The translations under genes and the position numbers were made by a program. The notes under the pieces were generated by a model, which was not told where the DNA came from, made no database searches, and saw only the letters and a program-made list of their open reading frames with translations. From positions 1 to 48,815 of IMG/VR virus record IMGVR_UViG_3300034171_000048: a DNA stretch of 48,815 nt; one strand, 5' to 3'. Numbering within the stretch: the stretch's first letter is position 1; the number at the start of each line of letters is the position of its first letter. Below, in pieces: positions 3,638 through 39,443 of this stretch. This DNA comes from a virus. Taxonomy: Duplodnaviria; Caudoviricetes.

Positions 3638-4231
3638 ATGGGAGATATGATTATTAAAGAAGAAAACCAATTAGACATTAAAAGGGAAACAGTAGAGTTA
3701 GATAAGCTTATGGAAATGGCGTCAATGCTTTCCAAGTCAACTATAGTTCCAGTAGCATATCAGAATAGACCAGAGAATTGTTTCATAGCACTTGATATGG
3801 CAAGTAGAATGGGTGTTAGTCCAATGGTTGTTATGCAGAACTTATATGTTATACAAGGTAAACCAAGCTTTAGTGGTTCAGCAATCGCATCAATGATTAG
3901 AAGTAACCCACAGTATACAAATGTTGAACTTAACTATGTTGGAGAAGAAGGTAAAGACACATGGGGAGCATATGTAACTGCTGAGAATAAACACAATGGT
4001 AAAACTATAAAAGGTGCTACGGTAACAATAGCAATTGCAAAGAAAGAAGGTTGGTTAACAAAAGGCGCTTCAAAATGGTTAACAATGCCTGAGTTGATGT
4101 TGGGATACAGGGCTTACACATGGTTTGGACGTATTCATTGTCCAGAAGTAATGATGGGATTGCAAGCTACAGAAGAAATTAGTGATGTAAGTAAACCAAA
4201 GACTGAAGCAAAAAATCCATATACTAAATAG
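3638..4231 (+). CDS. RecT/Redbeta-like single-strand annealing protein
   Basis: IVPVAYQNRPENC...GVSPMVVMQNLYVIQGKP...PELML; adjacent exonuclease. Confidence 0.75.
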   Translation: MGDMIIKEENQLDIKRETVELDKLMEMASMLSKSTIVPVAYQNRPENCFIALDMASRMGVSPMVVMQNLYVIQGKPSFSGSAIASMIRSNPQYTNVELNYVGEEGKDTWGAYVTAENKHNGKTIKGATVTIAIAKKEGWLTKGASKWLTMPELMLGYRAYTWFGRIHCPEVMMGLQATEEISDVSKPKTEAKNPYTK

Positions 4232-4240
4232 GAGGTAATT

Positions 4241-4402
4241 ATGGGAATGTTTTTATTAGCACTATATATTGGGGTTGTTTACACGGCAGTTGCAATATAT
4301 ACAATATTAAGTGAAGAAATTGATAATATAATTATTGGAATAATGATAGGATTTCTAGTCCCAGTTATTTCATTGTCAATATTGGTAATAGGAGGATTGT
4401 AA
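4241..4402 (+). CDS. Small two-TM membrane protein (53 aa)
   Basis: SD GGAGGT; hydrophobic ORF abutting next ATG. Confidence 0.65.
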   Translation: MGMFLLALYIGVVYTAVAIYTILSEEIDNIIIGIMIGFLVPVISLSILVIGGL

Positions 4403-5176
4403 ATGATTAATCCAATCGAACTAGAAAATGACGAATTGTATTTCGCAGATGAAAGTTATATGTCAGTTAGTAGATATAAGAAGTTTAAAAGATGTGAATT
4501 AGGTGGTATTGAACCTTGGGGTAAACCAAGTGATGCTATGTTAATAGGAAGTTATGTTGACGATTATATAAGTGGTATTTTGGATAAATTTAAATTAGAC
4601 CATCCAGAGATTATATCTACCAGAGGTGCAACTAAAGGAGAACTTAAAGCTGACTTTAAGAAAGCAGATGAGATTTGTAAATTTATAGACAATGATATTG
4701 TATTCTCACAATTTCTAAGTGGGGAGAAACAAAGTGTAATGACTGGTGAGATTAATGGTATACCGTTCAAGTGTAAGATGGATAGTTATTCAAAGGGTAT
4801 GGCAATTAGTGATTTGAAAGTTGTAAGAACTGTTACAGACTCCAAAGGTAACTATATAGACTTTGTTACTTCTTGGAACTATGACACGCAGTTAGCATGT
4901 TATCAGGAGATATGTTTTCAGAATACTGGTGAGAGACTACCATGCTATATTTGTGCAGTAACTAAGGAAAGTCCAATCAATAGTGTTATAATAGAAGTAC
5001 CTCAAGTATATTTGGACATGGCATTATATGATGTTGAATGTAATATTGAAAGGTATTATGGAATTAAGATGGGAACAGTTGAAGCAGAAGGTTGTGGAAC
5101 GTGCAAGACTTGTATTGAGGCAAGAACTGAAACTCCAATAATAAGTTTACAAGATATAATCGAAGGAGTGATGTAA
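4403..5176 (+). CDS. PD-(D/E)XK exonuclease (RecE/DUF3799-like)
   Basis: YMSVS, FKCKMD...ISDLK, YDTQLACYQ, C-terminal CGTCKTC. Confidence 0.8.
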   Translation: MINPIELENDELYFADESYMSVSRYKKFKRCELGGIEPWGKPSDAMLIGSYVDDYISGILDKFKLDHPEIISTRGATKGELKADFKKADEICKFIDNDIVFSQFLSGEKQSVMTGEINGIPFKCKMDSYSKGMAISDLKVVRTVTDSKGNYIDFVTSWNYDTQLACYQEICFQNTGERLPCYICAVTKESPINSVIIEVPQVYLDMALYDVECNIERYYGIKMGTVEAEGCGTCKTCIEARTETPIISLQDIIEGVM

Positions 5177-5177
5177 T

Positions 5178-5387
5178 TTGGATTCTGTATTTCTACTAGG
5201 AGAGTTTTCAGAAAATGGTGTTTTCATACGTTATGTAAGAAAGAGTAGAAATAATAATATAGTTGGCTATGATACTCTAAGTTCTGCTAAACGAGGATTA
5301 AGTCATAGTAATAAAAATTCAAACTATACTGGAAAATTTAAAATACTAAAATTTAAACCAAGTTCTATTATAGAAGGAGTGATATAA
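5178..5387 (+). CDS. Hypothetical protein
   Basis: ORF track; tight packing with neighbours. Confidence 0.55.
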   Translation: MDSVFLLGEFSENGVFIRYVRKSRNNNIVGYDTLSSAKRGLSHSNKNSNYTGKFKILKFKPSSIIEGVI

Positions 5388-7260: not shown

Positions 7261-7331
7261 ATGCAGAGGGCAACTAAAATAAAATAAATAGCTATCTTAT
7301 GTGCCAATTGTATGTTATAATATAACTACAG

Positions 7332-9056
7332 TTGGTTTTACATTACAAAAAAAGGAGAGTGATTATTATAATTTTCATAGATTTTGAGGTATTTAAATAT
7401 AATTGGTTAATATCCTGGCTTGATACAGATACAAAGAAAACACATTTTATAGTTGATAATAAGTCACAACTTGAAAATTTTTATGAGCATTACAAGGATA
7501 CGATAATGGTAGGGTATAATTCAAGAAATTATGATAATTATATTCTAAAAGCTATATTATGTGATTTCAACCCTTATGAAATGTCAGATTGGATTATAAA
7601 TAAAGACCGTAAAGGCTTTGAATTTTCTAAACTATTAAATAATTTTCCCATACTCGGATACGATTGTTCAGTAGGATTCAGAAGTTTAAAAGAACTCGAA
7701 AGTTTTCAAGGTCACAGTATAATTGAAACATCTGTTCCATTTGATATTGATAGACCATTAACGAGAAAAGAATTGTTATCTACAATTGAATATTGTAAAA
7801 CTGATGTTATGGAAACATTTGGGGTATTCATTGAAACTCAAACTGAATTTTTATCTCATATGGGATTAATTAAAGAATTTGGACTTGATATTTCATGTAT
7901 TAATAAAACTAAGGTTCAGATGTCAGCTATAATTTTAGGAGCAGTGAAAAAGAAACATGATGATGAATTTGACATTGTATTTCCAGATACTTTAAAATTA
8001 GGTAAACATGAATGGATTAAAGAATGGTATAAAAATTGGGGAGATAATGTAAAAGATTATGAAAAAATGAAATTGGGAACCACCATAAATGATGTGCCAC
8101 ATACTTTTGGAATTGGAGGTTTGCATGGTGCCATAAACAAATACTATGGAGAAGGATATTTTCTGATGGCGGATGTAAGTTCTTACTATCCTGCTATGAT
8201 GATTGAATATAACTATCTATCTAGGAATGTATTGAATCCAAAAAAATATACACAAATACGTGATGATAGATTAATTATGAAAGCTAATAAAGATAAAAGA
8301 CAAGGGCCACGTAAGATTGTACTCAACGGTACGTTTGGAGCCTCGAAGGATAAATATAATAATCTATACGACCCAAAACAAGCGAACGGTGTATGTATAG
8401 CAGGACAGTTACTACTCCTAGACTTGATAAACGCATTAGAAGGTAAATGTCAGCTTATTCAGTCAAATACAGATGGTGTGTTAGTCAAATTATACAGTAA
8501 GGATGATAAAGAGGAGATTGTATCCATATGCAATGAGTGGTCTAAAAGAACAAGAATGGATTTGGAGTTTGACGAATACTGTAAGGTAATTCAACGTGAT
8601 GTAAATAACTATATAATCATGGATGATAAAGGAACTATAAAACGTAAAGGTTCAGTGGTTAAAAAGCTGAGTCCATTGGACAATGATTTACCAATTGTAA
8701 ATAGAGCAGTTGTGGATTACTTCACAAAAGGTATTTCAGTTAAAACTACAGTTAATAAATCTAAGTTATTGCTTGATTTCCAAAAGATAACTAAGATTAC
8801 CAGTAAGTATGAGTATGGTTCACACAATGGCAAGAAAATATATAATAAGGTACAGAGGTGTTTTGCCAGTAAAGACTCTAGTGATGGTACGTTATATAAA
8901 AAGAAACGAGATAAGGACACATTAGATAAAACTGCTTCGACTCCCATATCATGTTTTATAGATAATGGCGATATTACAGAGAAGGGCATTCCATCTAAAC
9001 TAGATAAACAATGGTATATAGACTTAGCACAAAAGAGAATTGATGATTTTGTATAA
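7332..9056 (+). CDS. Family B DNA polymerase with 3'-5' exonuclease (start probably ~7359-7371)
   Basis: ExoI DFEVF, ExoII GYNSRNYD, ExoIII YCKTDV; motif A DVSSYYP, B KIVLNGTFG, C NTDG. Confidence 0.9.
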   Translation: MVLHYKKRRVIIIIFIDFEVFKYNWLISWLDTDTKKTHFIVDNKSQLENFYEHYKDTIMVGYNSRNYDNYILKAILCDFNPYEMSDWIINKDRKGFEFSKLLNNFPILGYDCSVGFRSLKELESFQGHSIIETSVPFDIDRPLTRKELLSTIEYCKTDVMETFGVFIETQTEFLSHMGLIKEFGLDISCINKTKVQMSAIILGAVKKKHDDEFDIVFPDTLKLGKHEWIKEWYKNWGDNVKDYEKMKLGTTINDVPHTFGIGGLHGAINKYYGEGYFLMADVSSYYPAMMIEYNYLSRNVLNPKKYTQIRDDRLIMKANKDKRQGPRKIVLNGTFGASKDKYNNLYDPKQANGVCIAGQLLLLDLINALEGKCQLIQSNTDGVLVKLYSKDDKEEIVSICNEWSKRTRMDLEFDEYCKVIQRDVNNYIIMDDKGTIKRKGSVVKKLSPLDNDLPIVNRAVVDYFTKGISVKTTVNKSKLLLDFQKITKITSKYEYGSHNGKKIYNKVQRCFASKDSSDGTLYKKKRDKDTLDKTASTPISCFIDNGDITEKGIPSKLDKQWYIDLAQKRIDDFV

Positions 9057-9060
9057 ACGG

Positions 9061-9089
9061 TTGACAAATTACCCTTCGTAGTATATACT
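9061..9089 (+). promoter_or_regulatory. sigma-A promoter
   Basis: TTGACA-17-TATACT. Confidence 0.8.
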
Positions 9090-9120
9090 GAGGGTAACAA
9101 ATTAATTAAGGAGGTTTTGT

Positions 9121-11028
9121 ATGGTAGAATTGTTTAAAGGGTATCAGCTTAGTGAGTATAAATCTCCAATTGGAGTAGTTGATGAAGCACATAGACTAAG
9201 TGAAAAACCAGTTGATTGTGATTATGTTGGAATTTTAAAAGATGAATTTGTTCAAATTGATTTTGATGATGATTGGGTTTGTGAGATTGTAAAGCAAATA
9301 GTAATTGATGAAAAGCTACAATGTTGTATGTTACAAAGTGAGAATGGTATTCACTTATATTTTAAAAATGAAGGTAAGGTTAAAAAAACTGGTGTTCATA
9401 AGAATTGTGGTATAGGATTACCAATGGATTTTGGTGTAGCAACTACTAATAAAATAAGAACTGTACCATTGAGAACTACTAAAATTGTAGATGGTATAAC
9501 CACAACTCACTTACGAGAATGGTTATATGCTCCAGATGAAATTGAAGTTATACCAAGTTATTTTATTCCAATATACAGAGAGTTTGACCAAAGTTTAAGA
9601 GTTGCAGAAGGAAGTAGAAATGACCTATTATGGAATCACAATTTCTTCCTTCAAACCTCATTGATGTTCACTTATGACGAGATAACTAAGATAAGTAGAA
9701 TGGTTAACAAATATATGTTTGAAACTCCACTTCCAGATGATGAAGTTAGAAGCATAACAAGAAAGGATGCTTTCTCAGAAGAATTGTTCTTTGGAAAGAA
9801 GGGTAACTTCCTTCATAATAAATTCGCTGACTGGATGTTACTTAATTGTAATATCGTAAAGATTGAAAATATTCCTCATATATACAGTAGGAAAGGATTA
9901 TATACTGCCGAAGATGATGAGTTTAAATGGGTAATGACCAATAAGATACCAACATTAAAAGATGCTCAAAAAGAGGAAACCTTAAAGTTTGTACACTTGA
10001 TGTGTAGTAAGGAACAAAGTTTTGCTAAAGCTAGATATATTGGATTGAAGGATAGTATATTAGATATAAATACAATGGAAGAATTTCCTTACTCTCCAAA
10101 TTGGATTATAACTAATAAGATTGAGCATGAGTATATTCCAAGCGCTTATTCAAAAGTCATGGATATTACTCTGAACAAGGTATCCTGTAATGATAAGCAG
10201 ATAAGATTGATATTAGAAGAAATGATTGGTTATTCTTTATATCGTAAGAATATTATGCAGAAATGTTTTATATTAACTGGTGGTGGTAATAACGGTAAGT
10301 CCGCAGTATTAGACGCAATCAAGTTATTGCTTGGAAATAGCAATATAACTGCTCTTAGTTTACAAGACTTGGAAACAAGGTTCAAACCTGCCGAAATGCA
10401 CAATAAATTAGCCAATATTGGTGACGATATAAGTGCTAAATCAATGGAAACTGCATCAGTATTCAAGAAAGTTGTAACTGGAGAATCATTCTCCGTTGAG
10501 AAGAAGTATGGTCAACCTTTCGATTTATCATCATATGCTACACAGATATTTTGTGCAAATAAATTACCTAAAATCAAAGATAAAACAGATGGTTTTAATC
10601 GTAGAATAGTATTACTTCCATTCAAAGCTAAATTTTCAGAAAATGATGCAGACTACGATATAAATATAGGTGAGAAATTAGCAAGTGAAGAATCTATGCA
10701 GTACCTATTAAAACTTGGAGTAGAAGGTTTAAAGAGAATTATAAATACTAAGAAATTTACAACATCAGACAAAGGTATGGAAGAACAAGAAGAATATAAA
10801 ATAGCAAATAATAGTGTACTAGCATGGATTGACGAAACAGAGTATAAAATACACAATGAAGCTATGACAGATGTATTGCTTGTGTATAAAGTGTGGTGTG
10901 TAGAAGGTGGTTATGTTCCAATGGATAGGGCAAGCTTCAAAACAGAGATATTAAAACTAGGATATAAAGATACAAGAAAGAATATAAATGGTAAAACTAC
11001 AAGGATATATATTAAGGAGGAAATTTAA
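9121..11028 (+). CDS. Primase / SF3 helicase (P4/D5-type)
   Basis: DFD and GIHLYF primase motifs, EGSRND, Walker A GGGNNGKS, IGDD, FCANKLP. Confidence 0.9.
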   Translation: MVELFKGYQLSEYKSPIGVVDEAHRLSEKPVDCDYVGILKDEFVQIDFDDDWVCEIVKQIVIDEKLQCCMLQSENGIHLYFKNEGKVKKTGVHKNCGIGLPMDFGVATTNKIRTVPLRTTKIVDGITTTHLREWLYAPDEIEVIPSYFIPIYREFDQSLRVAEGSRNDLLWNHNFFLQTSLMFTYDEITKISRMVNKYMFETPLPDDEVRSITRKDAFSEELFFGKKGNFLHNKFADWMLLNCNIVKIENIPHIYSRKGLYTAEDDEFKWVMTNKIPTLKDAQKEETLKFVHLMCSKEQSFAKARYIGLKDSILDINTMEEFPYSPNWIITNKIEHEYIPSAYSKVMDITLNKVSCNDKQIRLILEEMIGYSLYRKNIMQKCFILTGGGNNGKSAVLDAIKLLLGNSNITALSLQDLETRFKPAEMHNKLANIGDDISAKSMETASVFKKVVTGESFSVEKKYGQPFDLSSYATQIFCANKLPKIKDKTDGFNRRIVLLPFKAKFSENDADYDINIGEKLASEESMQYLLKLGVEGLKRIINTKKFTTSDKGMEEQEEYKIANNSVLAWIDETEYKIHNEAMTDVLLVYKVWCVEGGYVPMDRASFKTEILKLGYKDTRKNINGKTTRIYIKEEI

Positions 11029-11615
11029 TGACAACTAGAATTAATGGTGTAGACGGTAATTGGAAGAATGTAAAGAATAAGTGTAGGACTACTGTTGGTA
11101 AGGAGTACTCCTCACTTGAATCTACCTCAGAGTTTAGAAGAAAATTGCTCATATCAGAGCACAGTCCAATAAGGCTCATATCGGTGGATTGGACATGGGA
11201 TAATATAGAATATTGGTTATCAACTGAATGGTCGAGACACAAATTTGAGAAGTTTATCAGCACACAGAGAACTGACAGAACTGGGGTCGATAGAGAGGAT
11301 AAACCACAAGGTTCAAGGGTCAAGTTTGATGGGTATGCTAACGCACAGAATTTAATAGATGCTTGGAGAAAGAGGCTATGCAGACAAGCAGACCCAAAAG
11401 CCACTAAGCTAGCATTGGATTTCAAGAGTGCACTTCATGATTTTGAGCCTGAATTGGCGGATATGCTTGTTCCCAACTGTGTATATAGATGTGGCTGCCC
11501 AGAATTTACTGCTTGTGGTTTTTGGGAACGATTCAAGGAGTGTAACTTCGATTGTGCCTTATTGGAAATAGACACAAGGTACGAATCATATAACGAAAAT
11601 TATTATACAACATAG
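11028..11615 (+). CDS. thyX: FAD-dependent thymidylate synthase-like protein
   Basis: SEHSPIR, EWSRHK...STQRTDR, RKRLC, LVPNCVY. Confidence 0.78.
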   Translation: MTTRINGVDGNWKNVKNKCRTTVGKEYSSLESTSEFRRKLLISEHSPIRLISVDWTWDNIEYWLSTEWSRHKFEKFISTQRTDRTGVDREDKPQGSRVKFDGYANAQNLIDAWRKRLCRQADPKATKLALDFKSALHDFEPELADMLVPNCVYRCGCPEFTACGFWERFKECNFDCALLEIDTRYESYNENYYTT

Positions 11616-11617
11616 TG

Positions 11618-11646
11618 TTGACAACCTCCTTTGTATGTGGTATAAT
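11618..11646 (+). promoter_or_regulatory. sigma-A promoter
   Basis: TTGACA-17-TATAAT, extended TG. Confidence 0.85.
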
Positions 11647-11682
11647 TAAGCCAAGTTAAAGAAGGGGAGGGAAAATGGAAAG

Positions 11683-11865
11683 ATGAATTACAAAGACTGG
11701 TTATTTAGTAGATTTACTATAAGTAATGTTAAATGGTATTTTAGGACTAAGAATCATTTAAAAGAGGGAAAATGTGTATTGGTTGATGGGTATACGAATT
11801 TAGTTTTTTACAAAGAAGATAAATGCACATGTGTACTAAATCCATTTAAATATGAACTTAAATAG
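11683..11865 (+). CDS. Hypothetical protein
   Basis: ORF downstream of promoter and G-rich SD. Confidence 0.55.
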   Translation: MNYKDWLFSRFTISNVKWYFRTKNHLKEGKCVLVDGYTNLVFYKEDKCTCVLNPFKYELK

Positions 11866-11908
11866 TGGCATACTTCAAATAGTGTGTGATAACAATAATT
11901 AATAAGGA

Positions 11909-12151
11909 GTGATTAAATTGACAAGAAGAAATGATGTTGATGAAATTAATTTAACAATAGAAGATTTTGAGGTGCGTAAAGATTTTATTAGAATATCATG
12001 GAGTTCTGATATCGGGTTTGGGGCGTATGATTTGATTAAAGGAGAGGATGAGTGGAGGGCTATGAGCGAGTGTATGGATAATAATGAAGATAAAGAATTT
12101 ATAGAAACATTACTTGGATTATTTGCTAAAGAACTAAATATAGTGGAATAG
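11909..12151 (+). CDS. Hypothetical acidic protein (start probably TTG 11918)
   Basis: SD AAGGAGTGA; ORF track. Confidence 0.6.
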   Translation: MIKLTRRNDVDEINLTIEDFEVRKDFIRISWSSDIGFGAYDLIKGEDEWRAMSECMDNNEDKEFIETLLGLFAKELNIVE

Positions 12152-22643: not shown

Positions 22644-22897
22644 AGTGCATAGTTAATACGAACCGTACCTACAGAGTTAAAGATTCAAATATAGAATTGT
22701 GGATGGCTGACTTTGGTTTTGGAGATACAGTGGAAGAAGCAAGAGAGAATTATCTCCATAATGTTGAGGTATATGTTAGCAAAGTAATTAGGGCATCTTC
22801 CAAAATTAGGATGGAGCAGGCATTGGAAATGAAAATGACTGTAATGGAAATGGCTGATTTTGCAATAAATGTATGTGGGTTGGAACTAGATTCTTAA
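22637..22897 (+). CDS. Hypothetical protein (weak HicB-like GDTVEEA motif)
   Basis: GFGDTVEEARENY. Confidence 0.5.
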   Translation: MLECIVNTNRTYRVKDSNIELWMADFGFGDTVEEARENYLHNVEVYVSKVIRASSKIRMEQALEMKMTVMEMADFAINVCGLELDS

Positions 22898-22899
22898 AT

Positions 22900-23213
22900 T
22901 TGTCACTACTTTGTCACAGTAACAATGAGGCAAGTAGTGGCTTTAAAAAAGGCTATGACTAACTTGTCACTACTTTGTCACTATTTTGTCGAGTGCTAAT
23001 AGCCTCATTCTAACCCCTTTTTACCCTCTTTTTACCTCTTTTTCTTAGTGACAAATAGAAAAGAGAAAAAGAGTATATAAATAGAAATAGAGGTATAGAA
23101 TAGTATAAAGGATGGGGAAAACGCGTCATATTTGTAATGGCAACGTTCAAAGTGAGTGAGAGCCCCAGAGAAGGTTGACAAACCGAATTGTCATTTTTGT
23201 CACACAGCAATCT
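22900..23213. repeat. TTGTCAC iteron cluster, candidate replication origin B
   Basis: TTGTCAC at 22900, 22911, 22964, 22975, 23207; inverted GTGACAA 23048; same layout as 1664-1842. Confidence 0.55.
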
Positions 23214-23254
23214 AATAATTTTACTTGGAAAGGGACATAATATAACTGAATGAG

Positions 23255-23812
23255 GTGATTACAATGGCGAGAACGTATAAATCAAAGAATATTGGTACAA
23301 AACCAAGTATGAGTGGAGGTGATAATATGGGAAAAGAGTATGAAGACAAGCATAAGGAAAAAGGCGAGGATGATAAAGGATTAGGCTTTATGGCTGACTT
23401 GTTCAGGCTATCCGTTTCAAAAATGCACATTGACCACTCAGCATGGAAAGTTGAGGATGTAGCAAGGGAAGTTGCAGGATACTTTGAATACTGTGAGATA
23501 AAACAATTGAAACCGTATATGAATGGAATTTGTCTTTATATGGGAATGTCAAAGTCTACCATGTACGAATGGATGGCTAACCCTCAAAAGTACGGGGCAA
23601 AATCGGACATTTTAACCCAAGCGAAGATGATTTTGGAAGGTCAATATATCGACAGAGCAGAGAAATACCCTACTGCGAACCTGTTTATGCTGCGTGCAGG
23701 ACACAATTATATTGAGACTAGTAAATTGGATGTACAAACTACTCCAAATACGGTACAGAACGTGGACGAAATAGCAGAAGCAGTTAAAAAGTTAGGATTG
23801 GACAAGAAATAG
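23255..23812 (+). CDS. terS: Terminase small subunit (gp3-like DNA packaging protein)
   Basis: YFEYCE..KPYMNGICLYMGMSKSTMYEW...NLFMLR. Confidence 0.75.
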   Translation: MITMARTYKSKNIGTKPSMSGGDNMGKEYEDKHKEKGEDDKGLGFMADLFRLSVSKMHIDHSAWKVEDVAREVAGYFEYCEIKQLKPYMNGICLYMGMSKSTMYEWMANPQKYGAKSDILTQAKMILEGQYIDRAEKYPTANLFMLRAGHNYIETSKLDVQTTPNTVQNVDEIAEAVKKLGLDKK

Positions 23813-23911
23813 TAGTATTGAGGTGGGAAATGGCTCCCCATACGCCGTGAAAATGGTTATCAGAGATGTAGGATACGCCGACCTACTAATACTAATGTTA
23901 AGTACGAAATA

Positions 23912-23960
23912 AGCGATTTTCACATTGGGGCTATGAGCTGGATGTGGAGGTCGCTTTTTT
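23912..23960 (+). terminator. Long-stem terminator after terS
   Basis: AGCGATTTTCACATT / GATGTGGAGGTCGCT 15-bp stem (with GU pairs) plus T run. Confidence 0.7.
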
Positions 23961-24060
23961 CTAAATATCGATTCTAAGCGATTTAATACCTATTCCCCTT
24001 ACGATTGTACCTCGAGAGAAAACGATAGGCTTAGAATCGACGTGAGGAATTAAAATGAGA

Positions 24061-24155
24061 TTTCAAATCGGCTTTTTCTCACCTTTCAAATCGGATGTTT
24101 TCAAATCGGCTTTATAAGAGTTTTCAAATCGGTTATGGCACAGATTTCAAATCGG
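24061..24155. repeat. 5x TTTCAAATCGG direct repeats
   Basis: Copies at 24061, 24084, 24099, 24122, 24145. Confidence 0.9.
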
Positions 24156-24165
24156 TTTTATGGAC

Positions 24166-24516
24166 GATTCTCATTCTCACACGAGCGCTGCCATCAACTG
24201 CAACTGAGAATCAGTCTCGACTGAGACATAGCCTCACTTCACTACATTAAAGTGCTGCACTTCACACTTCTACACTTCAACGTGCTAAAGTGAATTGTGT
24301 GAATATTCAGAATTGTTTGTATTGTTTGACACAATTAGAATATTCAGAATTGTTTACCATAGCAAGTTTCATGCCAACTTTTATGCACTAATAATGCATA
24401 AAACCTAAGAGGTATTCGATACTACATTCATGCAAGTTCCAAATCCAAAACTTGCAGAAATAAGTCTTGACATATCCAAATAAAAGGAGTATAATCACAC
24501 GCGCGCACACACGTTC
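24166..24516. promoter_or_regulatory. Array of host-regulator-like binding sites (Fur-, CodY-, sigma-54-, ArgR-, LexA-like, plus orphan palindromes)
   Basis: See finding; strongest match is TTGGCATGAAACTTGCT (minus, 24361-24377), sigma-54 -24/-12 consensus. Confidence 0.5.
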
Positions 24517-24619
24517 TATTATTTGAAGCGAAAATTAATTTGAACTATTTCACTGAAATGTATTGACAAACGCCAAAATAAATGAGATAATGTTATTAGA
24601 AAGAGGGGAGGCGAACAAG

Positions 24620-24760
24620 ATGTACAATATGAGTATGGAAAAAGCAGGAAACGCATATACAGTTCAATTTGATAATGTTGTGGTAAAGTTTGACAGCAAG
24701 GAGTTAGCAATGGAATTCATAATTAAGGTATTGGTTGAAACTGGCAGAATGGGTTACTAA
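24620..24760 (+). CDS. Small early protein
   Basis: SD GGGGAGG; MYNMSMEKAG... Confidence 0.6.
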   Translation: MYNMSMEKAGNAYTVQFDNVVVKFDSKELAMEFIIKVLVETGRMGY

Positions 24761-24944
24761 AAAGAATTTTAATAAAAGGGTTGACAACCAAACGAATACA
24801 TGTTATTATATAGGTAGTGGCAAGGACAACAACTTAATTTTATCCAACTAAGCAAGGACTTCTAGTCCTAAACGGTGTTAAAAGAAAGTTGTTGACAAGT
24901 GGCAAAATACATGGTATAATAAATATAGAAAGGTGGTGGTGCTC

Positions 24945-25064
24945 ATGTTAGTAAAATTATATAATAAGATTACTGAAAAACAGTTAGTATCGGTGGCATT
25001 ATATTTCACAACAGTTATTATTGGATGCATGTTATATGTTTATAAATATAATTATCAAGGATAA
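24945..25064 (+). CDS. Small early membrane peptide (39 aa)
   Basis: SD AAGGTGGTGG; LVSVALYFTTVIIGCMLYVY. Confidence 0.55.
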   Translation: MLVKLYNKITEKQLVSVALYFTTVIIGCMLYVYKYNYQG

Positions 25065-25143
25065 GCTTGACAAGTGATGAAGTACATGATATAATGTAGT
25101 TAGTAGCAAAGCAGCAACAAAATAAATACATGGAGGTCTAACA

Positions 25144-25632
25144 ATGGACATTGAAACAATGATTTCTGAACTAACAAAGAATTATGATTTGAAAACTTGT
25201 GTATTAGCAGAGACAGTCGAGGAGGTTGCGTTTGACGGAACTAAGGAGTATACAATAGTAACAACGTACTTTGATACTAACATTGGTGAAATAGCATATG
25301 GACATGATGGAGTTATAACCCTACTCGAGTCCAGAGAAACGGAGGCTGTAATAATGGAAAATATAAGGATAACACAAACAACAAGTAACTACGCAAAAAG
25401 AGGTAATAAGTGGGTTGAAATGGCTAGTTATAAAACTATAGTTGACGAAAACACATATGACAATGTTGTAAATAGCAAATCATTCTTCGCTAATTTAGGT
25501 GCACATGAACGGTATACAAAGAGCTACACATGCAAGGGTTATATAGTAACTAGGATTAATTCAATCTCACCTAATAGACAGAATAAAACGGTTTATAACT
25601 TTGAATTTACAAATATTAAGGAGGTTTTATAA
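25144..25632 (+). CDS. Early hypothetical protein (possible in-frame second start MENIRIT)
   Basis: SD GGAGGT; internal GGAGG-N9-ATG. Confidence 0.65.
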   Translation: MDIETMISELTKNYDLKTCVLAETVEEVAFDGTKEYTIVTTYFDTNIGEIAYGHDGVITLLESRETEAVIMENIRITQTTSNYAKRGNKWVEMASYKTIVDENTYDNVVNSKSFFANLGAHERYTKSYTCKGYIVTRINSISPNRQNKTVYNFEFTNIKEVL

Positions 25633-25859
25633 TGAAGAAAGCAGAATTTAGCGTATCACATGGTGACGTATCAATACACGACGTAACAATGGTAAGAGAG
25701 GGCAACACTCTATGGATATATAAGAAAGGTGTATTAGTTACTAATATAATGTTGAGATTCAATAAACTAGTATTCTTCTTCTCCGACTATAGTAGTGACC
25801 ATACAACAAAGGAAATATACTTCCACATAGTGAAAAACGACGCTTGGAGGTCAGAATAA
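25632..25859 (+). CDS. Early hypothetical protein
   Basis: SD AAGGAGGT, coupled. Confidence 0.65.
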   Translation: MKKAEFSVSHGDVSIHDVTMVREGNTLWIYKKGVLVTNIMLRFNKLVFFFSDYSSDHTTKEIYFHIVKNDAWRSE

Positions 25860-26056
25860 TGAATAATTTAGAGAGAGCAGAAGCCGTGTGGCTAACGCCA
25901 CCAGAAACAATGCAAGTTTGTGAATGTCAGCAATGTGCTGGGGAGTTATACGAAGGCGATACAATATATAAATTTGATAACATGGATTTTTGTTCTAAGG
26001 AGTGCATAGTGGAGTGTTTAATTACTAATGGAGATGTCGAAGAAACACAAGAGTAA
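25844..26056 (+). CDS. Zn-finger-like early protein
   Basis: CECQQCAGELYEGD...FCSKEC. Confidence 0.65.
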   Translation: MEVRIMNNLERAEAVWLTPPETMQVCECQQCAGELYEGDTIYKFDNMDFCSKECIVECLITNGDVEETQE

Positions 26057-26106
26057 AAAATAAAGTTCGCTGGTTCATCTAGAAAGCCAGTAAAAAGGAG
26101 TTATAC

Positions 26107-26418
26107 ATGGATAATATAAAAGTTGGCAATATGATATCAGATAAAGGAAATGTAGTAGCAAATCAATTTGTAATGAGCATCAATGGAGTTCAATATTTCC
26201 AGAGTTACTCAAGTATGATAGCGAAGTGTGATGGTGCTAAGTTGACATTGGGTGCAAATTGGGACTGTTCAATCACTACTATGAAGCATCTATATGCATG
26301 GTTAGACGGCAACTGTGGTTGGTTTATATCTACATTACCACGTAAAGCATCTAAGAGGGCAACTATACAGCATGCAATTGACACAGGGCTAATTCAATAT
26401 GATGGAGGTATGAGCTAA
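26107..26418 (+). CDS. Early hypothetical protein
   Basis: NQFV...YFQSYSSMIA...WDCSITTMKHL conserved-looking phage motif. Confidence 0.7.
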   Translation: MDNIKVGNMISDKGNVVANQFVMSINGVQYFQSYSSMIAKCDGAKLTLGANWDCSITTMKHLYAWLDGNCGWFISTLPRKASKRATIQHAIDTGLIQYDGGMS

Positions 26419-26717
26419 TGATTAAACATAAAAGAAATTTATTAATTAAACCTCATTTCCTAAAGGACAATACTGCGAGTCTATGTTTGAATAACTGGGG
26501 TGGAATAGTTATCCAACTAACTGAGGATTGTGAGGGTGTAAAGTATCAATTTAATTTTGGAGATAATAAACCAAGTGAAATATTAGAAAGTGAAATAATA
26601 TATGAGATTAATGAGGACTTCCCAAGTGAGGATGACGACGAATATCAACCATGTTTTTATACATCCAATAATGAGAGGTATTTTATAAATGAATTTATGA
26701 GGGATGATATCAGATAA
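26418..26717 (+). CDS. Early acidic hypothetical protein
   Basis: ORF track; coupled start. Confidence 0.65.
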   Translation: MIKHKRNLLIKPHFLKDNTASLCLNNWGGIVIQLTEDCEGVKYQFNFGDNKPSEILESEIIYEINEDFPSEDDDEYQPCFYTSNNERYFINEFMRDDIR

Positions 26718-26838
26718 CTAATGAGGGTATAAATAGCATATGACAATATAGAAAGTAGGTGATAAAATGTTGTTAATAATACCAATTATATTCTTTATGG
26801 AATTAGTTAAAATGTGTAATAGTTAGTACATGATAGAG

Positions 26839-26865
26839 AGGAGTGCATAATAGCACTTCTTTTTT
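26839..26865 (+). terminator. Terminator ending early module
   Basis: AGGAGTGC-ATAATA-GCACTTCT plus T run. Confidence 0.8.
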
Positions 26866-27157
26866 AATGCTATATATTACTTAACAATTGTTATTACTTA
26901 GCAGCATATACTACATGATAACATATAGTACGGGATATTATATATTATATGATAGTTGTTATTGATTAGTAATGTGTATAACATGATAGTTATTATTAAC
27001 AAACAATTATTATTACTTAGCATAGTTCATTAAACAATAATTATTATTAGGTAGTAACCCCTATTTCAAACTCACTATATGTCACAGCTTACCCCTCCGA
27101 GTAACTCCGAGAAAAATTTGAAAAAATGACTTCCATTTTCTCCCAAAGCCAACTCAG

Positions 27158-37855: not shown

Positions 37856-38596
37856 ATGGCAATGTCAACTGCAACAACAACTTTGAAATATGCTACTTCT
37901 TCTGCTCTACAGATAGAAACTGCTACTGTTGTGGGTACGATTACCCAGGCAGGAAACGCTACAGTAATAGTCACTGGCAGAGATATAAGTGGTAGTCCAA
38001 TAACTAATCAAGTGGCAGTAGCTTTGGATGATACTGCTTCACAAGTAGCAGAAAAGATACGAGTAGAATTATCATTACTTCCAGATATAACAAATGTTTA
38101 TACTGTTGGTGGAACAACTAGTGATGTTATTTTAACTAAGTTAGTTGCAACCAATGATGATACTACTTTGAATATATCTGTAGATAATGGAACTTGTACT
38201 GGAATAACAACTGCTTTAACATCTGTCGATACGTTAGCAGGGGGGACTTATTTAAGTCTAGTAGCAATCAATAGTTATCCAGATATGGGCTCAACTCCAT
38301 CTAAATTAGATACTACTGATATGGCACAATCGACTTACAAAACTAGTATTCTTGGATTACAAGAAGTGCCAGACTTGACATTTGAATGTAATTATGATGA
38401 AACAATTTTTAACACTATAAATAGCCTTAATGCCAGTAATTATTTCTTTCAGTTAGTATTTGGAATAGCAGATGGCAAATTCGATTGGCAAGGTCAAGTT
38501 AAAATATACGCAATGGGTGGGGGAGTAGACGAAGTTAGGAAGATGACAGTTACACTCTCTGCATCTACACCATTAGTATTTGGAGTAGTAGCTTAG
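37856..38596 (+). CDS. Major tail (tube) protein, copy 1, with 112-aa insertion
   Basis: SYPDMGSTPSKLDTTD...ILGLQEVPDLTFECNYD...GGGVDEVRKMTVTLSASTP. Confidence 0.85.
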   Translation: MAMSTATTTLKYATSSALQIETATVVGTITQAGNATVIVTGRDISGSPITNQVAVALDDTASQVAEKIRVELSLLPDITNVYTVGGTTSDVILTKLVATNDDTTLNISVDNGTCTGITTALTSVDTLAGGTYLSLVAINSYPDMGSTPSKLDTTDMAQSTYKTSILGLQEVPDLTFECNYDETIFNTINSLNASNYFFQLVFGIADGKFDWQGQVKIYAMGGGVDEVRKMTVTLSASTPLVFGVVA

Positions 38597-38615
38597 TAAA
38601 AAAGGAGGAATTAGA

Positions 38616-39008
38616 ATGGCAATATCAACTGCAACAACGAGTTTAGATTATGGAACAGACGGAGTAGCTTATGATAAACTAATAGACATAATTTCATATC
38701 CAGACATGGGTTCTACACCATCTAAATTAGATACAACTGATTTGGGAGCATCTGTATACAAGACAAGTATTCTTGGATTACAAGATGTACCAGACCTAAC
38801 ATTTGAAGCTAATTATGATGAGGGAGTATTCAATACAGTAAACAATTTAAATGCACCATCTTATTATTTCAGATTAACATTTGGAACTGCTGATGGAGTA
38901 TTCAAGTTTCAAGGTCAAGTAAAAATCTATGCTATGGGTGGGGGAGTAGATGAAGTCCGTAAAATGACAATTACACTATCTGCTTCAACCCCAATAGTAT
39001 TCAGTTAA
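38616..39008 (+). CDS. Major tail (tube) protein, copy 2
   Basis: Same motifs as copy 1, no insertion. Confidence 0.85.
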   Translation: MAISTATTSLDYGTDGVAYDKLIDIISYPDMGSTPSKLDTTDLGASVYKTSILGLQDVPDLTFEANYDEGVFNTVNNLNAPSYYFRLTFGTADGVFKFQGQVKIYAMGGGVDEVRKMTITLSASTPIVFS

Positions 39009-39023
39009 GAGGAGGAATAAATT

Positions 39024-39443
39024 ATGGCAATGTCAACTGCAACAACTTCACTATTAACTAGTGCAACGCAAGGTGGAACATATGCAAGTCTAGTTGATAT
39101 AATCAGCTATCCAGATATGGGTTCAACTCCAAGTAAGCTAGACACAACTGATTTATCAGCATCCGTATTTAAGACTTCCATTCTTGGATTACAAGACGTT
39201 CCAGATTTAACTTTCGAGTGTAATTATGATGAAGCAACTTATAATACAATAAATACTATTACTGGAACACAATGGTTTCATTTAGCTTTCGGAGAAGTTA
39301 CTCTTGGAGCAGGAGAATTTGGAACATTTGAATGGTCTGGACAAGTTCAGATTTATGCAATGGGTGGAGGTGTTGATGAGGTTAGAAAAATGACAGTAAC
39401 TTTATCAGCTTCAACTCCATTAACTTTCATTCCAGTAGCATAA
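39024..39443 (+). CDS. Major tail (tube) protein, copy 3
   Basis: Same motifs, short loop insertion. Confidence 0.85.
   Translation: MAMSTATTSLLTSATQGGTYASLVDIISYPDMGSTPSKLDTTDLSASVFKTSILGLQDVPDLTFECNYDEATYNTINTITGTQWFHLAFGEVTLGAGEFGTFEWSGQVQIYAMGGGVDEVRKMTVTLSASTPLTFIPVA

Follow-up and report, generated by a model that had tools for sequence, protein, structure and literature searches.

What use could a phage have for a short, gene-free stretch of DNA that is filled with sites for unrelated regulatory proteins of its host? The question arises from a window of 48,815 nt, by which we mean the whole stretch of DNA analysed here, and which holds a complete phage genome of 48,688 bp (48.7 kb plus a 127-nt assembly overlap). 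The gene set is that of a siphophage, lies on one coding strand and includes an anaerobic ribonucleotide reductase, an amidase endolysin and sigma-like proteins, and the host is probably a clostridial Firmicute. The window is present in 20 of 22 listed public runs, mainly brine metagenomes, of which nine carry a mark as possible source, and no RNA run with the window is among these 22. The order along the genome is terS, a skipping-rope RNA, five short repeats, the array, five sigma-A promoters, small genes, a second non-coding stretch, a phosphoesterase gene, terL and the structural genes (Table 1), such that the gene-free array sits between the 7-mer repeats on the terS side and the promoters. 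The original prediction described it as a back-to-back series of binding sites for many different host proteins, which would serve as a landing pad at the leading end of the incoming DNA. In what follows, L-numbers are labels of related or matching loci and X-numbers denote public runs.

Table 1. Features in and around the operator array, with positions in the window
Feature	Position	Strand	Remarks
Small terminase subunit gene (terS)	23267..23812	+	phrog_606, PF16677; relatives found by profile; anchors the upstream side of the cassette in every relative
Probable long direct terminal repeat, ~3 kb	23800..27100		edges approximate; from contig depth
Skipping-rope RNA (Rfam RF02924)	23813..23894	+	Rfam scan; first base adjoins the terS stop codon
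Five copies of a short repeat	24061..24154	+	7-mer core
Three Fur-like sites, degenerate	24165..24236		12, 11 and 9 of 15
Predicted HisR (YerC, TrpR-family) operator 1	24235..24254		13/14 consensus positions (available text of PMC9413887); matrix p 1e-6
Predicted HisR operator 2	24273..24292		13/14 consensus positions (same source); matrix p 6e-8, best in the genome
CodY-like boxes	24293..24353		pair at 24293 and 24302 (9-nt offset); second copy at 24339
Sigma-54 -24/-12 site	24360..24377	-	matrix p 1e-7, best in the genome; oriented toward the genome end
Palindrome, spacing wrong for an ARG box	24379..24403		ArgR matrix p 3e-3, rank 154
Conserved element	24406..24425	+	also in L015, L017 (twice) and L014
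8-10-8 dyad	24431..24456		lies just ahead of promoter 1; L015 and L017 have exact copies
Sigma-A promoter 1	24467..24495	+	12/12 consensus match
LexA-like site, weak	24504..24517		over the predicted start of promoter 1; p 3e-5
Further sigma-A promoters	24563, 24781, 24892, 25067	all genome-inward	11-12/12
Small early genes, function unknown	24563..26717	+	phrog/Pfam-type annotation and ORF list
Second dyad-rich non-coding stretch	26860..27120		ends in GC-rich/A-tract element shared with relatives; probable far repeat edge

Every motif string listed in the original prediction is present where it was placed. The array itself is real; about half of the labels given to its elements had to be corrected. 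In the 330 nt that follow the last repeat, 28 dyads were counted against a shuffle mean of 9.1, with 0 of 60 shuffles reaching 28, and in a comparison of 440 overlapping genome tiles the AT-rich tiles at 16.2-16.4 kb equal or exceed the array in dyad score. Scoring matrices were learned without phage input from the non-coding DNA around hisR, sigma-54 activator, lexA, dnaA and argC genes of Bacillota genomes, with training yields of 21/28, 19/27, 22/29, 29/29 and 26/30 loci, respectively. Neither 29 feoA loci nor 7 iron-binding-protein loci gave a Fur matrix, and argG loci gave none for ArgR, whose matrix comes from the argC loci. The CodY-like and Fur-like labels come from hand counts against published consensus sequences.

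Motif scoring with controls, as the prediction had proposed, places the best HisR and sigma-54 sites of the genome in this array and leaves several other labels at the level of chance. The notion of an array for many host proteins thus holds for several unrelated regulators on the basis of the host-learned matrices, and is not supported for the ArgR, LexA and cre labels or, in this genome alone, for the Fur label. An RNA reading of the array was also considered and was set aside, given that Rfam matches only tRNA and the skipping-rope RNA, both of which lie outside it.

The 20-mer that had been called an orphan element is present twice, as claimed. Its copies are the two best matches to the HisR matrix in the whole phage genome, and therefore the sequence is no orphan and is identified as a predicted HisR operator. 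Like the Firmicute HisR (YerC) operators described in the available part of Ashniev et al. (2022, PMC9413887), each copy is a 20-bp dyad that agrees by hand count with 13 of the 14 specified consensus positions and fits the matrix derived from hisR loci. Unlike the operators in that account, the phage sites lie at probable phage ends, 210-270 nt from a promoter, and have no his gene or hisR next to them, nor does this phage carry such a gene elsewhere; with no regulon promoter at hand, they read as operator-type sites outside any regulon. In the reverse test, matches to site 2 turned up in 4 of 29 hisR loci, compared with 0 of 150 loci of other kinds. In an alignment of site 1 with L015, both changes are confined to the spacer. 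This phage encodes no protein of the TrpR/HisR family, and no TrpR-family gene over the cut-off was found in 5 other records. In the portions of PMC9413887 at hand, the HisR of R. gnavus binds its own site in a histidine-dependent manner, and the HisR regulon is small, comprising few operons. Because HisR controls only few operons, the description of the bound host proteins as 'abundant' is doubtful, and HisR may instead be scarce in the cell.

A closely related 20-mer has a single exact match in the species-genome collection (L119), right after a -10-like element and upstream of a gene that by eye resembles the one for dehydroquinate synthase. This perfect HisR-type dyad at the promoter of the likely dehydroquinate synthase gene (L119, 1475-1520) suggests a TrpR-family regulator of aromatic amino-acid synthesis in that genome.

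The sigma-54 site was correctly recognized as having exact -24/-12 spacing and no gene behind it. In the reverse test, it has counterparts in 7 of 30 activator loci, compared with 1 of 149 others, and all minus-strand ORFs in the ORF list between it and terS are 40 aa or shorter.

CodY operators consist of 15-bp boxes that often form overlapping pairs. The CodY-like boxes in the array score 12/15 and 11/15 by hand count against the consensus in the available text of PMC5314169, with chance expectations of 0.15 and 1.0 per 350 nt. Taken alone, the label is therefore near chance. The boxes gain weight because L017, L014 and L018 have four to six clustered copies of the same 15-mer in their arrays, in many cases spaced by 9 nt, and pairs with this 9-nt offset recur both in relatives and in cultured phages. 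We consider them plausible CodY sites.

The remaining labels fared less well. Compared with the C. difficile Fur consensus, as given in the accessible part of PMC6311696, the three Fur-like sites of this genome alone are at chance level, a score of 12/15 being expected 0.9 times per 350 nt; by the same hand count, Fur boxes reach 13/15 at the homologous place in L015, 14/15 in L017 and 15/15 in L032. The ArgR label at 24379 fails on matrix score and rank. At the homologous place, L015 carries two good ARG boxes (p 9e-7 and 4e-6), and the palindrome is likely a collapsed remnant of these two boxes from which the middle was lost; matrix-grade ARG boxes are found in L015 (two sites) and in L014 (three). 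The LexA-like site is weak and ties with three other sites of the genome, a matrix-grade LexA box being found in L032. The hexamer AGCGCT, which had been read as a cre core, showed no enrichment in six regulon sets, none of them that of CcpA.

No host factor could be assigned to the conserved element at 24406 or to the dyad at 24431. The dyad is present in 35 viral loci, two of which carry two copies ~65 nt apart, and in 11 of 301 bacterial genomes versus 6 for a reversed control. Its three exact bacterial matches all fall in one orthologous intergenic region.

These unassigned elements, together with the 7-mer repeats, which are likely terminase or packaging sites, are the natural ground for a different explanation, namely that phage proteins (the terminase and two sigma/HTH proteins) bind the palindromes for packaging or repeat formation, or that the array is neutral, operator-like filler. 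The phage does encode two HTH/sigma-like proteins, and several of the labels first assigned are at chance. However, one or two phage proteins cannot account for the exact fits seen across the family to five host motifs that were learned independently, and the same HisR site is found in phi29-like phages with unrelated replication machinery. We therefore judge this explanation highly unlikely, and phage proteins or chance would account for at most the elements that lack an assigned host factor.

Among the relatives, a terS profile recovered 37 loci. After removal of duplicates, near-duplicates and two loci that end ~150 nt after terS, ten distinct usable arrays were analysed, with terS proteins 30-83% identical to that of this phage. 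In all ten, terS is followed by two to seven copies of the 7-mer core, by non-coding DNA and then, where the contig extends that far, by early promoters. Because L015 is too close to this phage, it was left out of the pooled counts.

The contents of the slot differ widely among these phages. By matrix, the L017 array holds four HisR and three DnaA sites, L014 three ArgR sites, L018 and L036 three DnaA sites each, L032 two sigma-54 sites and a LexA site, L023 a sigma-54 site and L035 two HisR sites. L032 also has three perfect Fur boxes by eye. The L038 array contains no site from any of the five matrices; by eye it carries repeats that we take to be Zur-like and response-regulator-like. Over nine phages, the five matrices at p<=1e-5 yield 25 sites within the arrays, which total 5,067 nt, and 12 in 100,204 nt outside them, and the arrays of 8 of the 9 phages have at least one such strong site. 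With four matrices at p<=5e-5, the counts are 28 sites in arrays versus 54 elsewhere. The nominal p of 1e-24 for this enrichment is an overstatement, because the region and the regulators were chosen post hoc and tandem copies are not independent. A figure for column conservation was set aside as circular, given that the matrix itself had selected the sites.

Even in the closest relative, L015, the array is identical at only 139 of 275 positions, against 327 of 343 and 111 of 120 in its flanks. Words shared with the array of this phage exceed the largest control tile in L017 (147 of 365 nt), L014 (130), L018, L032 and L036, but not in L023 or L035, and none are shared with L038 (controls, 0-18 tiles). 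A clear excess of dyads (0 of 60 shuffles) is seen in 5 of the 10 arrays and is absent in L035 by the same shuffle test. These comparisons show that relatives exchange the regulator set within the same slot. No cultured close relative emerged, given that BLAST searches of GenBank phages with the region and with terS returned short matches or none, and phage Maintenon (TerL 42%) by eye has no such array.

This exchange bears on the possibility that the sites serve nutrient-dependent control, in which the sigma-A promoters would be subject to repression, roadblocking or activation by the regulators, and development would start only when the host is in a suitable state. Histidine is needed for HisR binding in the available part of PMC9413887, and CodY, which responds to branched-chain amino acids and GTP, can act as a roadblock. 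In addition, the 24431 dyad and the LexA-like site flank promoter 1. However, the predicted start is ~125-270 nt downstream of the HisR, CodY and sigma-54 sites, no strong matrix site accompanies the four inner promoters, which are just as strong, and the regulator set varies even among near relatives. Most sites are 100-270 nt upstream of the first promoter, in agreement with the earlier remark that such unrelated operators are ill-suited to the control of one promoter. We consider nutrient-dependent control unlikely, although it may coexist with a landing pad.

Where the array lies relative to the physical end of the DNA was assessed from read depth, which here is contig-level depth and not copy number. 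Of four runs, three (X4, X15 and, for a variant strain, X17) have roughly twice the depth between about 23.8 and 27.1 kb. In X4, which is possibly the source sample, depth is 11.3 upstream, 16.1 across 23245-24120, 23-29 over 24091 to 26717 and 12.8 beyond 26786. In X15, it is ~1,800 up to 23566, 2,739 across 23537-23930, 3,700-4,700 inside and 1,371 from 27122. The X17 variant strain rises from 4,200-5,300 before 23566 to 7,300-12,100 at 24774-26815, and the patchy coverage of X20 reveals no depth step. The drop on the right side falls between about 26.7 and 27.1 kb, where a GC-rich/A-tract element at ~27.1 kb recurs in relatives.

This pattern agrees with a direct repeat of ~3 kb whose left edge would lie 200-700 nt before the array, and so the slot is probably located just inside the left physical end. 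The 'direct terminal repeats' class given in the record most likely reflects the 127-nt assembly overlap. Because the sigma-A promoters face inward, we infer that the left end would enter the cell first. The proposed position near an end thus gains indirect support from contig depth, but the wording 'leading end' is too narrow, because CodY-like clusters are also found at the far edge of the putative repeat in L014, L017 and L018.

That far edge has features of its own. It is dyad-rich and carries CodY-like boxes in L017 (8600-8800), L014 (2790-3030) and L018 (8970-9190), and in this phage (26860-27120) as in these three it ends in the common GC-rich/A-tract element. Presumably Spo0A-like 7-mers are also seen there in L017 and L014. 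At the opposite edge, the skipping-rope RNA lies near the putative left end of the terminal repeat, and besides this phage it was detected in L015 only, among 13 related loci scanned.

Sites of the same kinds occur beyond this family. A search with an exact 18-mer from the L017 HisR site yielded 78 viral loci. In 74 of these, the site is at a contig end, with a median distance of 55 nt from the end, although these 74 loci were selected by motif and comprise only four sequence types. All five loci tested encode a DNA polymerase B of the protein-primed type, and four fall in the class with inverted terminal repeats; we take these loci to derive from phi29-like phages that are unrelated to this phage. 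When phi29-like records were instead found by their polymerase, one of three had a HisR site in its first 1,500 nt. LexA-matrix matches adjoin the HisR sites in 5 of the 74 end loci, and dyads that by eye we assume to be Rex-like also adjoin HisR sites in such loci.

The L017 array also recovered CodY-like clusters in cultured phages. In Bacillus phage Mater, the cluster begins and ends 50-145 nt inward of the annotated edge of the repeat; in phage Anthony, it falls within the first 750 nt; and SscS-F1 has one as well. Also recovered in this way was the T7-like Shigella phage A7, whose record (L305, 1-150) starts with seven DnaA-matrix matches interleaved with its short terminal repeats. A limit on the link to ends is set by the large phage contigs L063, L100 and L310, in which 11-16 HisR-type sites are scattered over 1.3-5 kb and not packed. 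With L085 included, the count is 6-16 HisR-type sites per 3-6 kb; L085 additionally has LexA boxes, and L310 has many CodY-like boxes. None of the three tested among the four has a TrpR-family gene over the cut-off.

Scattered sites of this type, which require no end, would suit a decoy, whereby replicated copies of the array titrate repressors of amino-acid synthesis, iron uptake and DNA repair, as well as DnaA, and thereby increase the supply of precursors. ArgR, Fur and LexA are repressors and are counted in favour of this idea. HisR and CodY likewise repress biosynthesis or starvation genes, as far as the available parts of PMC9413887 and PMC5314169 describe them, and a repressor with a small regulon such as HisR should be easily titrated. 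Titration is independent of position at the tip, yet the sites hug the ends in unrelated lineages. Moreover, even if the terminal repeat is real there would be two copies per genome, which are few when set against a regulator such as CodY that governs more than 100 genes (PMC5314169, in the text at hand), and the outward-facing sigma-54 site is left unexplained. Titration of this kind strikes us as somewhat unlikely, though it too may operate alongside a landing pad.

It is quite possible, and we hold this view tentatively, that the mixed host-operator cassette works as a landing pad at the probable left tip of the DNA. Host regulators, including HisR, sigma-54 and likely CodY, would bind the tip as the phage DNA enters. 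The bound proteins could keep the leader from slipping back, in the manner of a ratchet, and could delay nucleases that attack free ends, in the manner of a shield. Host RNA polymerase might then load on the five sigma-A promoters behind the pad and drive further entry. The analysis establishes the sites, their enrichment and their exchange between relatives, and we infer that proteins bind, where the end lies, which end enters first and that the phage benefits.

Selection on a landing pad would be for tight occupancy by any host protein and not for one particular signal, which would be why relatives fill the slot with sites for DnaA, ArgR, LexA, Fur, CodY, HisR or sigma-54. This occupancy reading is suggested by the exchangeable content, the multiple copies, the distance from promoters, the outward sigma-54 site and the closeness to ends in unrelated lineages. 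In phi29-like phages, a terminal protein caps the ends, as described in the available text of PMC11476376, and therefore the idea of a shield is weaker there; most of the non-coding space also lies at those ends, which likewise counts against a landing pad.

The landing pad can also be imagined as a sensor, because HisR, CodY, ArgR and Fur occupy their sites only under a good supply of histidine, branched-chain amino acids/GTP, arginine and iron, respectively. Naked incoming DNA would then sense the nutrition of the host before any expression, and entry or commitment would follow only in a well-fed cell. We regard such nutrient gating as distinctly improbable, and the broader picture that it implies, of exchangeable operator cassettes acting as a general entry device at the tips of unrelated phages, as a long shot.

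How phage DNA is taken up and survives once the capsid pressure is spent is an old open question. To our knowledge, the idea of a ratchet made of host proteins has so far had no defined sequence to mutate. The present cassette is short, involves named host proteins, comes with natural swaps and has cultured counterparts in Mater and Anthony, and thus is directly testable; it would also give meaning to unannotated repeats at many phage ends. The competing explanations would be new as well if true, since they would mean either that decoy DNA derepresses host biosynthesis or that nutrients are sensed before the phage expresses any gene.

Early regions of the T7, T5 and SPO1 type have terminal repeats followed by tandem strong host promoters. 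The present locus is similar in having short repeats, several near-consensus host promoters that face inward and then small genes, but differs by the operator cassette that separates the repeats from the promoters. Also familiar are host sites close to phage ends, as with the Spo0A boxes by the phi29 origins, the IHF sites in lambda cos and the LexA boxes in GIL01. Those cases resemble this one in that a host DNA-binding protein is used at or near an end or at early promoters. In each of them, one factor has a specific role, whereas several unrelated factors seem to be interchangeable here.

Another close parallel concerns the injection-stop region of T5, for which the available text of an in-silico proposal describes eight DnaA boxes (Davison, bioRxiv 10.1101/866236). 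As in that proposal, host-protein sites lie in the non-coding part of a probable long terminal repeat and have a proposed role in entry, and the relatives L017, L018 and L036 have three DnaA boxes each. The T5 boxes, so far as that text goes, are of one type, keep a conserved order, lie at the inner repeat edge and are proposed to halt entry, whereas the present array lies at the probable outer tip and has mixed regulators that are exchanged between relatives. Among the matches listed for this phage, no DnaA-matrix match is found in the array or at 26.8-27.1 kb, and thus the eight-box set of T5 is absent. A literature search, with most subscription papers outside its reach, returned no description of multi-regulator arrays at phage ends, and the available portions of PMC11476376 and PMC13330545 contain nothing on host operators at phage ends.

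Several minor observations were made in passing. Upstream of terS, an 11-nt tandem repeat family (22897-23000) is kept in L001, and other relatives have comparable repeat-rich blocks ahead of terS. Promoter 1, which has no gene of its own, is followed by an alternating purine-pyrimidine run (24496-24512); the run is identical in L015, and similar runs occur at the Mater repeat edge and in Anthony. Two dyad-rich, AT-rich stretches of the genome (16170-16720 and 45430-46300) score as high as the array. Three tandem genes at 37856-39443 all belong to the same major-tail-protein family, phrog_158. Finally, L311 (1380-1700) has four copies of the same 7-mer, followed by CodY-like boxes and by a dyad that we take to be Rex-like.
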